From assembly GCA_016709725.1 (NCBI GenBank), contig JADJMG010000007.1:222258-286257 (forward strand): a stretch of 64,000 nt of DNA, written 5' to 3'. The notes under the pieces are model-generated. The model saw only the letters and a program-made list of their open reading frames with translations. It searched no databases and was not told where the DNA came from. The stretch comes from Bacteroidota bacterium. Lineage in GTDB: Bacteria; Bacteroidota; Bacteroidia; AKYH767-A; OLB10. Both the position numbers and the translations under genes were made by a program. Of this stretch, positions 37,552 to 39,492 are shown in pieces (within the stretch, counting starts at the first letter, position 1; the number at the start of each line of letters is the position of its first letter).

Positions 37552-37576
37552 TCTCCATTAATCATTCAATTCAAAG

Positions 37577-37607
37577 GGCCTTGTCTTTTTGACAAGGCTC
37601 TTTTTTG
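37577..37607 (+). terminator. Rho-independent terminator after the agmatinase gene
   Basis: ggccttgtc-ttttt-gacaaggc followed by tctttttt. Confidence 0.7.
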
Positions 37608-37907
37608 TCTTTTAAATTTTCAGCACGCAATAATCTATTGTATCTGTATCATACACTTTTTTTTAATGAATTGTACTTCTGTTTGCAATACTAAATTCCT
37701 CATCAAAATTTTTCCTGCTAAATGTAAATGTTTATTTGATAGTTTGTCTATGTGAAACAAACGTGTATCTACTTCTTCTGATTTTTTTAGTCTATCGAAA
37801 TCGTTGTAATTCGGAACATATTAGTTGAAAGGAAATATGCATCTTATTATGGTCCCTGGTAACTTAAAGTGATTGTACTCGTAAAACAATAGCTTAAATG
37901 GATTATT

Positions 37908-39173
37908 ATGGTGCCTAAGGAAGCTAGCGATCGAATTTATTTTGGGGGATTGAATGGATTAAGATTTTTTGCGGCTACAGCTGTCATTTTCCATCATGTG
38001 GAGCAATATAAACTATGGGCACAGCGGGATGGAGCATCCTATTCAAGTGTATTCGGGGGAGATTCAATATTAAGCATCTTTTTTGAGGCGCTCGGACATA
38101 AAGCGGTTTCATTATTTTTTGTATTAAGTGGATTTTTGATTACATATTTATTATTGGCTGAAGTTAGGAAGACGAATACCGTAAGTTTAAAGAAATTCTA
38201 CATGCGTCGAATCCTCCGGATTTGGCCAGTTTATTATGCTGTAATCCTATTGGCATTTACGATAGTTCCCCGACTTTTTGATGTCGGAAATTATGGTCAA
38301 GAAATGTTGACGAATAATCCATGGATTTGGTTTGGATTATGTTTTATGATGTTGCCAAATTTAGTTCGTTACAATAGCGTTGAGTTGGTAGGCGGAAATC
38401 AAACTTGGAGTGTAGGGGTTGAAGAGCAATTTTACATAATTTGGCCTTGGTTGGTCCGCTCATTTCATAAAAATTTAGTCCGCATGTTGGTCGTATTAAT
38501 TGTTGTTAAGTTAGCACTCGGTTTGACGGCGAGTATGATTGCGAATCAAACAAATGCAGGCATTCTTCATACGATCGCTAATAAGTTCCAACTCTATTGG
38601 GGATTATTTAAAATTGAACAAATGGCAATAGGTGCTTTGGGTGCATGGTGTTTGTTCACTAATAAAAAGAAAGTGCTGAATTTCTTATATCATCCATTCT
38701 TGGTTTGGGGGTCAGTTGTGGCATGTGTGGGCTTCTTTTTTGTTGAATATTCCTTTGCAGGAGATACCTTGTTGGAAGCTTTTGTTTTTCTAGTGATCAT
38801 TATTAATGTGTCGACCAATCCAGCATGCATGTTGAAATTTGCGAGTCCTAAGTTTAATACGCTTGGTAACATCTCTTATGGCATTTATATGTATCATACA
38901 TTGGTAATTGCCGTTTTACTGAGCTCTCTGCAACGTATGGGGCTAGATCAAAATCCAATTTTGTTTAATTCAATTTTATATATTGGATCCATATTCGGTA
39001 CTTTTGGATTAGCTTATTTGTCCTATAATTATTTTGAAAGCTGGTTCTTGAATCTTAAAGAGAAATTCATGGTGGTGAAGAGTTCGAATAAGGCAGAATT
39101 GATAGGGAAGGAAGAAGTACAGGATGCTCAGAGAGAAGTGAAAAGTGCTTTTGATAAGCCAGTTTCAGTTTAA
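37908..39173 (+). CDS. Acyltransferase family 3 (OafA/YrhL-like membrane O-acyltransferase)
   Basis: 421 aa, about 10 TM segments. LNGLRFFAATAVIFHHV, NQTWSVGVEEQFYIIWP: the acyl_transf_3 signature. Confidence 0.8.
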   Translation: MVPKEASDRIYFGGLNGLRFFAATAVIFHHVEQYKLWAQRDGASYSSVFGGDSILSIFFEALGHKAVSLFFVLSGFLITYLLLAEVRKTNTVSLKKFYMRRILRIWPVYYAVILLAFTIVPRLFDVGNYGQEMLTNNPWIWFGLCFMMLPNLVRYNSVELVGGNQTWSVGVEEQFYIIWPWLVRSFHKNLVRMLVVLIVVKLALGLTASMIANQTNAGILHTIANKFQLYWGLFKIEQMAIGALGAWCLFTNKKKVLNFLYHPFLVWGSVVACVGFFFVEYSFAGDTLLEAFVFLVIIINVSTNPACMLKFASPKFNTLGNISYGIYMYHTLVIAVLLSSLQRMGLDQNPILFNSILYIGSIFGTFGLAYLSYNYFESWFLNLKEKFMVVKSSNKAELIGKEEVQDAQREVKSAFDKPVSV

Positions 39174-39236
39174 AATACTATTTTAAAGAGGCCAATTAAT
39201 AATTGGATCTAAAACGCCTGTTTCAAATGTAATTAT

Positions 39237-39392
39237 AGAGCATGAAGTAGGTTTGTTTTGTACTCAAATCATCCAAAACGAGAAAGTATATTGTATCTAA
39301 ATTGCTGAGGTAAATCATACTTTAGGCCCGAAAAATTTGATGGTAGAGAAAACTGCGGTAATTTTACTAATCGTAGTTGCTCAAATCGCATA
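39237..39392 (+). pseudogene. Degenerate remnant of an agmatinase 3' end (about 52 codons), followed by a degraded copy of its terminator
   Basis: Translates EHEVGLFCTQIIQNEKVYCI*IAEVNHTLGPKNLMVEKTAVILLIVVAQIA*. The real C-terminus at 37396-37551 is TEKEAGSLCVRLIQNEKVCCFEIAEVNPTLDKENLMAENTFEILQRVVAQIA*. Nucleotide identity is about 70%, the remnant has an internal stop, and a terminator-like cccttgtc...ttttttttt follows it. Confidence 0.65.
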
Positions 39393-39492
39393 AATCTCAT
39401 ATCTATATCAATACACAGTCCCTTGTCAATAAGACGGACCTTTTTTTTTTATTTTGGATTATCTGCATACAATTAGCCATTAAATTTGCGAT

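Follow-up and report, generated by a model that had tools for sequence, protein, structure and literature searches.

Many integrative elements duplicate the 3′ end of the gene that they target, with att sites in tRNA or protein genes. In Acinetobacter, homology-facilitated illegitimate recombination in natural transformation was reportedly described by de Vries and Wackernagel in 2002. Gene order may also change by tandem duplication and random loss, a model established for animal mitochondrial genomes (PMC5745709, PMC4223735). Our literature search on duplication-random loss, with less than exhaustive coverage of the bacterial literature, returned mitochondrial cases only. The motifs listed for AT3 membrane acyltransferases are R/K-X10-H in the first helix, FFXISG, and RXXR (PMC7448272).

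The DNA analyzed here, called the window, is a whole stretch of 64,000 nt from a Bacteroidota bacterium (GCA_016709725.1, contig JADJMG010000007.1, positions 222,258 to 286,257 of the forward strand). An acyltransferase gene lies in it between an arginase-family gene and argS, and the end of the arginase-family gene recurs behind it as a dead copy. We propose that an old segmental duplication of resident DNA, combined with differential loss, probably relocated the acyltransferase gene and left the dead gene end behind.

The acyltransferase gene and the duplicated gene end

The features of the locus are given below. L013 is the sole other lineage that carries the acyltransferase block.

34861 to 35077, no strand: gap between the 287-aa gene and the decarboxylase gene, empty in the window; outgroups hold a 147-aa-family gene and an acyltransferase gene there
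35078 to 36469, − strand: decarboxylase gene ("speA"), PLP-dependent arginine/ornithine decarboxylase-like (PF02784 match)
36607 to 37551, + strand: live arginase-family ureohydrolase gene, 314 aa (PF00491, E = 2.6e-55)
37363 to 37551, + strand: left (live) copy of the duplicated gene end, gene nt 757 to 945 (gapless alignment to 39205 to 39393)
37552 to 37648, + strand: left copy of the arginase-family gene/argS spacer (spacer profile E = 4.7e-9, match at 37561 to 37648)
37690 to 37790, + strand: tentative decayed 3′ tail of a 147-aa-family gene (colinear nucleotide alignment with L013 8610 to 8702)
37791 to 37907, + strand: region upstream of the acyltransferase gene (homologous to its L013 counterpart, last ~65 nt well conserved)
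37908 to 39173, + strand: AT3-only membrane acyltransferase gene, intact, 421 aa (PF01757, E = 3.2e-26)
39188 to 39204, + strand: short vestige, resembling the sequence just before the nt 320/757 fusion junction in the L013 remnant
39205 to 39393, + strand: dead copy of gene nt 757 to 945 (nhmmer E = 1.5e-30; in-frame TAA at 39298 to 39300)
39394 to 39492, + strand: right spacer copy (spacer profile E = 1.2e-22; multiple alignment)
39493 to 41301, + strand: argS (arginine--tRNA ligase), right-hand frame gene (TIGR00456, 439 bits, above cut-off)

The decarboxylase gene is divergent from the arginase-family gene and belongs to a conserved frame, being syntenic in all relatives; the scores of the speA models on it fall under their cut-offs. 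The arginase-family gene had initially been labeled an agmatinase. Its place in the ureohydrolase family stands, and the narrower label appears doubtful. The agmatinase models missed their cut-offs (TIGR01230, 76.5 versus 174.3; NF002564, 66.3 versus 302), and the arginase model TIGR01229 came only slightly under its own (221.9 versus 227.6). The nearest solved structures are those of bacterial arginases (PDB E = 2.7e-51), with agmatinases at E = 1e-16. By these scores the name is loose, and the gene seems closer to arginases.

The acyltransferase matched PF01757 over residues 14 to 369 with 92.6 bits (gathering cut-off, 31). Its motifs comprise R19-X10-H30, FFVLSG at 70 to 75 (Leu for Ile), and RILR at 101 to 104. 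AT3 proteins have ten transmembrane helices; for this protein a crude hydropathy scan gave 11 partly overlapping hydrophobic windows, or roughly 6 to 8 separate segments. No SGNH domain and no second Pfam domain were found in the protein, which stops 52 residues past the AT3 match. NCBIfam models gave no match, a PDB sequence search returned nothing, and a look-up of the exact protein found no match. The label "OafA-like" was correct as to the AT3 membrane acyltransferase family, but with the SGNH domain absent it overstates the resemblance. Public pipelines call the homologues "peptidoglycan/LPS O-acetylase OafA/YrhL." The dN/dS of 0.07 between the window and L013 indicates purifying selection, and the gene is predicted to encode a working AT3-only membrane O-acyltransferase, which presumably acylates a glycan of the cell envelope. 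It is not located within a polysaccharide locus.

The ~1.7-kb segment had been described as AT-rich and as carrying only this gene. Its non-coding stretches around the gene are indeed AT-rich (GC, 0.29 to 0.31), but the gene itself is normal, with a GC of 0.370 and a GC3 of 0.355 compared with 0.377 ± 0.025 and 0.329 ± 0.062 for the window genes (31 gene proxies). Both values are within one SD, and 37908 to 39173 thus shows no deviation from the window genes in GC or GC3. The segment also contains the tentative tail of a second gene, at ~37690 to 37790, for which tblastn gave a weak match to residues 119 to 141 of the 147-aa protein (E = 0.57). No Pfam family was found for the 147-aa and 163-aa proteins.

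The dead gene end at 39205 to 39393 is identical to 37363 to 37551 at 135 of 189 positions (71.4%), without gaps, and comprises the last 62 codons and the stop. A nucleotide profile of the arginase-family gene detected it with an E value of 1.5e-30 (1.2e-23 in the scan of all loci), and tblastn gave 60% identity over residues 253 to 314. A start codon is absent. The differences between the remnant and the live copy are spread evenly over the codon positions (15/17/22), whereas those between two live copies are distributed 2/0/25. The remnant is present in L001, L003, L004, L005, L091, and L013, and public gene calls annotate it as an antisense ORF of 66 to 68 aa. The initial annotation had reported a decayed duplicate at 39237 to 39392, with ~70% identity and an in-frame stop. 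That duplicate is real, far beyond chance, and its coordinates are accurate within 1 nt. Its length had been put at ~52 codons, which is too short, as the copy starts 32 nt further upstream and on its 3′ side runs through the spacer.

The repeat takes in the whole 100-nt spacer, to ~3 nt from the argS ATG, and the two spacer copies have decayed in different parts. In the left copy the strong terminator at 37573 to 37603 is intact (−20.4 kcal/mol; z, −5.9) and the argS-proximal part is decayed. In the right copy the hairpin at ~39418 to 39440 is degraded (−6.1 kcal/mol; z, −1.3) and the sequence near argS is conserved, including TAAATTTG at 39481 to 39488. The degraded terminator copy that had been noticed after the remnant was thereby confirmed. 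The hairpins show the same pattern in both carriers, with −20.4 and −17.8 kcal/mol for the left copies and −6.1 and −5.6 kcal/mol for the right copies. Compared with the empty site, the last 45 nt of the spacer are 84% identical in the right copy and 75% in the left copy. A scan for sigma-70-type promoters, a type unsuited to Bacteroidota in any case, found 10 sites where 10.9 were expected by chance. Because the terminator hairpin downstream of the acyltransferase gene is degraded, its transcripts probably read through into argS.

In L013 the order is 147-aa gene, acyltransferase gene (88% aa identity), remnant, argS. Its remnant consists of gene nt 69 to 320 fused to nt 757 to 945, in a long-read assembly that may contain indel errors. 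The match to nt 69 to 320 has an E value of 5.6e-13 and scores 35.9 bits, whereas 1000 dinucleotide shuffles reached −2.4 at most. The remnant of the window begins at nt 757, at the same fusion junction. These matches indicate that the second gene copy was once nearly full length, covering nt 69 to 945. Immediately before gene nt 757, the window has GAGGCCAATTAATAATT and L013 has GATGGGCAATTGTGG. The ~17 nt at 39188 to 39204 may be a vestige of the L013-type internal-deletion junction, which so short a match can only suggest.

Gene order in relatives and the age of the remnant

Nine outgroup loci (L016, L022, L092, L093, and L124 to L128) hold a 147-aa-family gene and an acyltransferase gene between the 287-aa gene and the decarboxylase gene. 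The flanking gene order of the window is common to them, and the rest of their neighborhood is syntenic with it. The aa identity of their acyltransferases to that of the window is 60 to 61% in L016, L022, L092, and L093 and 64 to 65% in L124 to L128. In L018 and L033 the 147-aa-family gene is found by itself between the same two neighbors. Compared with the outgroup order, the derived order amounts to a transposition without inversion, every orientation being preserved. At the other end of the locus, the arginase-family gene lies directly 5′ of argS in about 65 of 80 related species, including the nearest relatives. This adjacency had been expected from the window and is read as the ancestral state.

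The block is carried by the window species and L013 and is absent in L008, L011, L012, L014, and L017, L008 being the nearest sister lineage. Within the window's own species, each of the nine contigs has it. The content had been called strain-variable; it does vary between closely related lineages or species, but within the species it is fixed. Homologues of the acyltransferase with 59 to 64% identity also occur in unrelated contexts (L094, L129), indicating that the gene does move. The next-closest homologues come from the syntenic outgroups, except that of L129. A "truncated acyltransferase" in L002, considered as an ongoing deletion, was rejected, as it reflects a 100-N scaffold gap.

Searches for intermediates and for further vestiges gave negative results. 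No genome with two full copies was found among 129 loci in genome, metagenome, and protein-cluster searches, and the ancestral order was likewise found in no member of the window clade. Nucleotide profiles and alignments detected neither decarboxylase gene remnants nor traces of the divergent promoter region after the acyltransferase gene in L013 or the window. No vestige of a first copy of the 147-aa and acyltransferase genes was found in the gap between the 287-aa gene and the decarboxylase gene. After so long, the lack of further vestiges is weak evidence. For the left boundary of the duplicated segment, comparison of the region upstream of the L013 147-aa gene and of window positions 37641 to 37720 with the outgroup 287-aa/147-aa spacers gave chance-level matches only, the regions upstream of the 147-aa gene being too diverged for the boundary to be located.

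In other species the spacer between the arginase-family gene and argS holds other cargo, namely a toxin-antitoxin pair (L025, L028) or another ORF (L043). Remnants were sought in the other insertions at the argS spacer (L023, L025, L028, L043), and none was found. Since these cargoes have no remnant, the duplication is specific to the acyltransferase event.

In phylogenetic analyses the window and L013 remnants form a pair (96% bootstrap) placed inside the window clade (82% bootstrap; outside, 0%). Where both remnants agree, their identity to the live copies of their own clade is 0.83 to 0.90, compared with 0.63 to 0.81 for all other species. Comparison of the remnant with related genes had been proposed as a means of identifying a donor lineage; the remnant is most similar to the live gene of its own clade and never falls outside that clade. 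The parsimony-informative sites for three sub-lineages number 5/5/3, a trichotomy that favors neither an original absence nor a secondary loss of the block in the non-carrier lineages. The L008 spacer resembles the left copy of the window at its 5′ end, a hint at deletion between the repeats that comes from a few bases only.

Over the 189 sites the remnant-remnant distance is 0.50 and the remnant-live distance is 0.36 in both genomes. With this number of sites, and on a clock that gene conversion between copies would reset, the copies separated before the split of the two lineages by 0.09 of the time since that split (95% interval, −0.07 to 0.30). The dS of the acyltransferase gene between the window and L013 is 0.97 to 1.0, and that of flanking genes is 0.8 to 1.28. 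The duplication event is, by these estimates, old and shortly predates the window/L013 split (dS about 1).

Proposed history and rival accounts

The ancestral order would have been 287-aa gene (−), 147-aa-family gene (+), acyltransferase gene (+), decarboxylase gene (−), arginase-family gene (+), spacer, and argS (+). The duplicated segment would have started upstream of the 147-aa gene and stopped where the spacer stops, its second copy arising either in tandem or by integration from another cell of the same population. The first copies of the 147-aa and acyltransferase genes and the second copy of the decarboxylase gene would then have been lost. Of the second arginase-family copy, nt 321 to 756 would have been deleted and the rest would have decayed. 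The net result would be a shift of the acyltransferase block across the decarboxylase/arginase pair. Decay of the two copies was complementary, the left one retaining the reading frame and the terminator and the right one the sequence at the argS start. The window lineage would afterwards have lost the bulk of the 147-aa gene by deletion, together with the 5′ portion of the remnant.

The gap between the 287-aa gene and the decarboxylase gene is colinear, at 217 to 221 nt, in every member of the window clade. As it is equally empty in carriers and non-carriers, either the duplication came before the clade as a whole, with two or more losses of the block since then, or the block had disappeared from that site beforehand and was regained from a close relative. 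We regard the second of these accounts as rather unlikely. It holds that the clade ancestor had lost the 147-aa and acyltransferase genes and that DNA of a close relative with the ancestral order re-entered, through a single crossover of a circular fragment or through one-sided homology and an illegitimate joint. The 147-aa, acyltransferase, decarboxylase, and arginase-family genes would have come in with the spacer, and the redundant incoming decarboxylase and arginase-family genes would later have been deleted. This is the idea of the initial annotation, changed in that the donor is near-identical and the incoming copy full length. It predicts the same final anatomy and accords with the presence and absence of the block among close lineages, and a loss before the event is the simplest reading of a gap that is empty and colinear in all clade members. 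However, neither the window clade nor its immediate neighbors include a known donor lineage that has the ancestral order, the remnant nests in that clade, and the copies were near-identical at the window/L013 split. The donor would thus effectively have belonged to the same population, which makes re-entry hard to separate from duplication within the genome.

Import of a foreign cassette from a distant donor by recent homologous recombination, bringing its own diverged gene end, was the main reading of the initial annotation, and we find it very improbable. The 29% divergence of the remnant from the live copy, the AT-rich non-coding flanks, and the absence of the block from the nearest sister L008 all speak for it. 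Yet the remnants are closest to their own clade, their divergence is that predicted by neutral decay since the window/L013 split, and the remnant was once nearly full length. The 147-aa and acyltransferase genes are resident neighbors in the outgroups, and GC and GC3 of the acyltransferase gene are normal. A dS of about 1 for this gene between carriers, similar to that of the flanks, contradicts a recent acquisition. Site-specific integration of a mobile element into the 3′ end of the arginase-family gene, with a replacement gene end, has hardly any likelihood in our view. Direct repeats do flank a gene-bearing insert, and the same spacer holds other cargo elsewhere (L025, L028, L043). Against this, the repeat originally comprised almost the whole gene and the spacer, far beyond an attachment core, and the other cargoes have no remnant. 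In addition, no integrase, transposase, or recombinase and no inverted or terminal element repeats were found in the insert or nearby, using the ORF list, a repeat search, and the gene tables of relatives. As for a chance match or an assembly artefact behind the remnant, E values of 1e-23 to 1e-30 and the recurrence of the structure in six or more independent assemblies that stem from different projects leave it practically no probability, and it was rejected. An "old insertion with duplication," the second option of the initial annotation, comes close to what the evidence shows. The case is one of neatly documented, ordinary genome evolution and not of a freshly imported cassette.

Comparison with known systems

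The finding leaves knowledge of acyltransferases and of arginine metabolism unchanged. Like Shigella Oac and other AT3-only O-acetyltransferases (PMC7448272, PMC9558356), the window protein has a single PF01757 domain of ~350 residues and no fused periplasmic domain. The R/K-X10-H, FFXISG-like, and RXXR motifs are also shared, the family match of the window protein being to the Pfam model only. With the AT3-SGNH fused proteins OafA, OafB, and OatA (PMC7448272), it has in common the AT3 membrane domain and the conserved motifs, but those proteins possess an 11th helix, a linker, and an SGNH domain, and the window acyltransferase has none of the three. The locus exposes several annotation issues, namely an antisense ORF on the remnant, a doubtful "agmatinase," and the name "OafA" on an AT3-only protein.

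As in integrative elements, the insert is flanked by the live gene end and, at its far side, by a displaced copy. The present locus differs from them in having no recombinase, a repeat that was once nearly the whole gene, and a cargo that is a resident neighbor gene. When a gene is bordered by a decayed copy of its neighbor, the DNA need not have been imported; a local duplication that relocated a resident gene can leave such a scar. Campbell-type single crossovers and homology-facilitated recombination also produce direct anchor repeats on both sides of the incoming DNA, with a redundant copy that is free to decay. Those cases are fresh laboratory or recent events involving foreign DNA, whereas here the copies were near-identical at their origin and the event is old.

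The likeness to duplication-random loss lies in a duplicated block, the loss of one copy of each gene, remaining vestiges or spacers, and a transposition with unchanged orientations. Several features set the locus apart: it is on a bacterial chromosome, the gene that moved is non-essential, the lost copies have largely vanished instead of being kept as spacers, and the duplicate may derive from another cell of the population and not from replication slippage. With its nine outgroup loci, shared junction, and remnant-based date, it provides a small worked example of bacterial gene-order change without mobile elements. We tentatively suggest that it might be a bacterial chromosomal case of tandem duplication-random loss, with datable vestiges in two species-level lineages and a unit of gene end, terminator, and promoter-proximal spacer that was partitioned between the copies. 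If so, this partitioning would be a non-coding analogue of subfunctionalisation, and the process would have put an envelope acyltransferase gene directly upstream of argS without a terminator between them.

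Duplicated gene end and spacer

The locus comprises the features listed below, among them ORFs annotated antisense to the remnant, which is the dead copy of the end of the arginase-family gene that precedes argS.

Features of the locus (window unless stated)
35078-36469, (-): gene for a PLP-dependent arginine/ornithine-decarboxylase-like protein
36607-37551, (+): arginase-family gene, 314 aa
37908-39173, (+): acyltransferase gene, 421 aa, single Acyl_transf_3 domain
39269-39400, (-): window equivalent of the antisense ORF, 43 aa
39493-41301, (+): argS
Related locus L001, 8662-8862, (-): antisense ORF over the remnant (public gene call)
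Related locus L004, 7243-7449, (-): the same (public gene call)
Related locus L005, 5608-5808, (-): the same (public gene call)

Window positions 39205-39393 aligned without gaps to 37363-37551 (nt 757-945 of the arginase-family gene), with 135 of 189 positions identical, and a nucleotide profile of the gene recovered the remnant with an E value of 1.5e-30. An in-frame TAA interrupts the remnant at 39298, and the substitutions separating it from the live copy were spread evenly over the codon positions (15/17/22), compared with 2/0/25 between two live copies. Chance similarity is contradicted by the data. The degenerate duplicate of the gene end described in the initial annotation is thus real, but it is longer than described, as the 100-nt stretch that separates the gene from argS (the spacer) also exists in two copies (left, 37561-37648, E 4.7e-9; right, 39394-39492, E 1.2e-22), both reaching to about 3 nt from the argS ATG. 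The terminator hairpin is strong in the left copy (-20.4 kcal/mol) and degraded in the right (-6.1 kcal/mol), confirming the decayed terminator noted behind the remnant. The argS-proximal 45 nt, which contain a TAAATTTG box at 39481-39488 in the right copy, were 84% identical to an empty site in the right copy and 75% in the left. Decay was complementary, with the hairpin better kept on the left and the argS-proximal part on the right. The 66- to 68-aa hypothetical ORFs that public gene calls place opposite the remnant are most likely spurious calls on pseudogene DNA.

Identity of the genes

The 314-aa protein scored 221.9 bits against the arginase model TIGR01229, 6 bits short of the cut-off of 227.6, and 76.5 bits against the agmatinase model (cut-off, 174.3). 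Its closest solved structures in the PDB were bacterial arginases (E 2.7e-51), with agmatinases at E 1e-16. The earlier label of agmatinase is therefore poorly backed by sequence, and because model scores and structures both favor arginases we use the name arginase-family gene. It stands back-to-back with the arginine-decarboxylase-like gene despite these arginase-like scores.

The acyltransferase gene had a GC content of 0.370 and a GC3 of 0.355, compared with 0.377 ± 0.025 and 0.329 ± 0.062 for window genes; only the non-coding stretches are AT-rich, not the whole segment as first noted, and the gene itself is of ordinary composition. Between the window and L013, the second carrier lineage, its dS of 0.97-1.0 was in step with that of the flanking genes, and its dN/dS of ~0.07 indicates purifying selection. 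The protein contains R/K-X10-H, FFXISG-like and RXXR motifs, which characterize AT3 enzymes (PMC7448272), and a domain search found no SGNH domain in it. Owing to that absence, it is an AT3-only membrane enzyme of the Oac rather than the OafA type, which revises its initial description as OafA-like; homologues are named "acyltransferase" or "OafA/YrhL" in public sources. No NCBIfam model matched it, and a PDB sequence search found no relative. AT3 proteins move an acyl, usually acetyl, group onto an extracytoplasmic glycan (PMC7448272, PMC9558356), and knowledge of the family implies that this enzyme would do likewise. The hairpin 3′ of the gene is decayed in both carrier lineages, suggesting that transcripts likely read through into argS. 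Homologues with 59-64% identity occur in unrelated neighborhoods, at L129 8001-9191 (among CpeT-like, PlsC-like, formate-tetrahydrofolate ligase and S41 peptidase genes) and L094 7534-8790, showing that members of this family have also relocated at other times.

The Peptidase_C92 gene 3′ of argS (41305-41927) is split around 41681 into 132-aa and 75-aa ORFs by one A missing from an A-run, which may be a true frameshift or reflect an error in sequencing; in L001 and L008 it is a single 207-aa ORF. Some 110 nt 5′ of the 287-aa coiled-coil gene (34861-34976, including GTCAAAG.TAAACATAATTTCACCTACAA.TATTGTA.TTCACCCAA) are strikingly conserved across species with 63-80% protein identity, regardless of what adjoins beyond. 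No Rfam family matched there in the window; the stretch may serve as promoter, leader or regulatory element.

Distribution and ancestral position of the block

Contigs from several projects encode the identical 314-aa protein. Nine of these contigs come from the window's species (dS no higher than 0.1 wherever it could be measured); each has the acyltransferase, and those that extend far enough also have the remnant. An apparently truncated acyltransferase allele in L002 was a 100-N scaffold gap. In L008, the nearest other lineage (dS 0.29-0.42), the arginase-family gene is followed directly by a 100-nt spacer and argS. We scanned 80 uncultured Bacteroidota at one genome per species, and in about 65, including the close L011, L012, L014 and L017, argS followed the arginase-family gene after 15-180 nt, the arrangement anticipated for relatives. 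The block is absent from sister species but fixed throughout the window's species, so that it varies between species and not, as first proposed, between strains. L013 (dS 0.8-1.28 from the window) was the only other lineage with the block; its acyltransferase, 88% identical to the window's, is followed by a remnant, and remnants were confined to these two among all loci scanned. The Bacteroidota MAG deposits for L014, L027, L030 and L078 bear implausible organism names in their titles, e.g., 'Bifidobacterium breve' and 'Chitinophaga pinensis', apparently placeholders or mislabelled entries.

In L013, a 147-aa ORF lies directly 5′ of the acyltransferase. In outgroups, a 147-aa-family gene followed by the acyltransferase, at once or past an extra ORF, sits between the 287-aa and decarboxylase genes, across the decarboxylase/arginase pair from the block's position in the window. 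The acyltransferases of L016, L022, L092 and L093 (60-61% identity) have an extra 163-aa ORF in between, L124-L128 show identities of 64-65% (acyltransferase) and 49% (147-aa family), and L018 and L033 have the 147-aa-family gene alone in this gap. Window and outgroups share the order PhoH, SAICAR synthase, PlsC-like acyltransferase and 287-aa protein, and argS, Peptidase_C92 and TerC. The window keeps a conserved region 5′ of the acyltransferase and, at ~37690-37790, the decayed 3′ end of the 147-aa gene, whose protein-level match is weak. The block thus appears to be resident DNA rather than foreign. The 287-aa/decarboxylase gap is empty and colinear in every clade member, carrier or not.

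Other cargo occupies the arginase-family gene/argS spacer elsewhere: a nucleotidyltransferase/HepT toxin-antitoxin pair (L025 3498-4065, L028 3311-3935), a 300-aa ORF that weakly matches phosphoribosyltransferases (L043 6182-7084) and 643 nt without an ORF (L023 5946-6588). No gene remnants lie beside these four, and the spacer is therefore a recurrent landing place. In L013, a group II intron (approximately 6002-7955; Rfam D1-D4 at 6085-6406, domain V at 7862-7955; reverse-transcriptase ORF broken at 7235) lies right behind the T-run of the arginase-family gene terminator. Bacterial class C introns habitually insert just past intrinsic terminators.

Extent, age and origin of the second copy

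A profile search matched L013 10228-10470 to nt 69-320 of the arginase-family gene (E 5.6e-13; score 35.9 bits, when the best of 1000 dinucleotide shuffles reached -2.4), directly abutting nt 757-945. The remnant would thus once have been a nearly whole gene. The window remnant also starts at nt 757, and the ~17 nt before it resemble the L013 pre-junction sequence, a short match that suggests a common internal deletion. We found no sign of a second decarboxylase copy.

Live copies of their own clade matched the remnants best, with an identity of 0.70-0.725 over all sites and of 0.83-0.90 where the two remnants agree; against all other species, including those of ancestral order, it was 0.63-0.81. 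In a neighbor-joining tree of 189 sites, the two remnants grouped together (96% bootstrap), nested in the window clade (82%) and never outside it. Over these sites, distances were 0.50 between remnants, 0.36 between remnant and live copy in both genomes and 0.16 between live copies. By a simple clock, the copies parted before the window/L013 split, by 0.09 of the time since that split (95% interval, -0.07 to 0.30).

We consider that the block probably owes its place to a local duplication long ago, followed by differential loss, and not to a foreign cassette. From the order 287-aa gene, 147-aa gene, acyltransferase, decarboxylase, arginase-family gene, spacer and argS, everything between the start of the 147-aa gene and the spacer end would have been duplicated, with no need for gene import; the 147-aa gene and acyltransferase would then have been lost from the first copy, and the decarboxylase and arginase-family genes from the second. 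This would explain the derived order with orientations preserved, the near full-length vestige by argS, the doubled spacer, the new junction behind its left copy and the complementary decay. It replaces the cassette with a diverged gene end proposed initially, since the remnants nest in their own clade and the block is apparently resident. A distant donor is contradicted by the data, the remnants being closest to their own clade, the acyltransferase ordinary in composition and its dS matching the flanks; a site-specific element is contradicted likewise. An intragenomic tandem duplication and an integrated second copy of this segment from a near-identical relative would leave indistinguishable anatomies, and either may have been the source, with return from a relative the less likely. 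As the old gap is empty throughout the clade and its three sub-lineages come out as a trichotomy, two histories are left: the event may be older than the clade itself, with at least two later losses of the block, most easily through recombination between repeats that were still similar, or the block may have come back from a close relative after the old site had emptied. Under old duplication with differential loss, the locus would be a clear case of a known process, following the same duplication-random loss scheme as is known from mitochondrial genomes.
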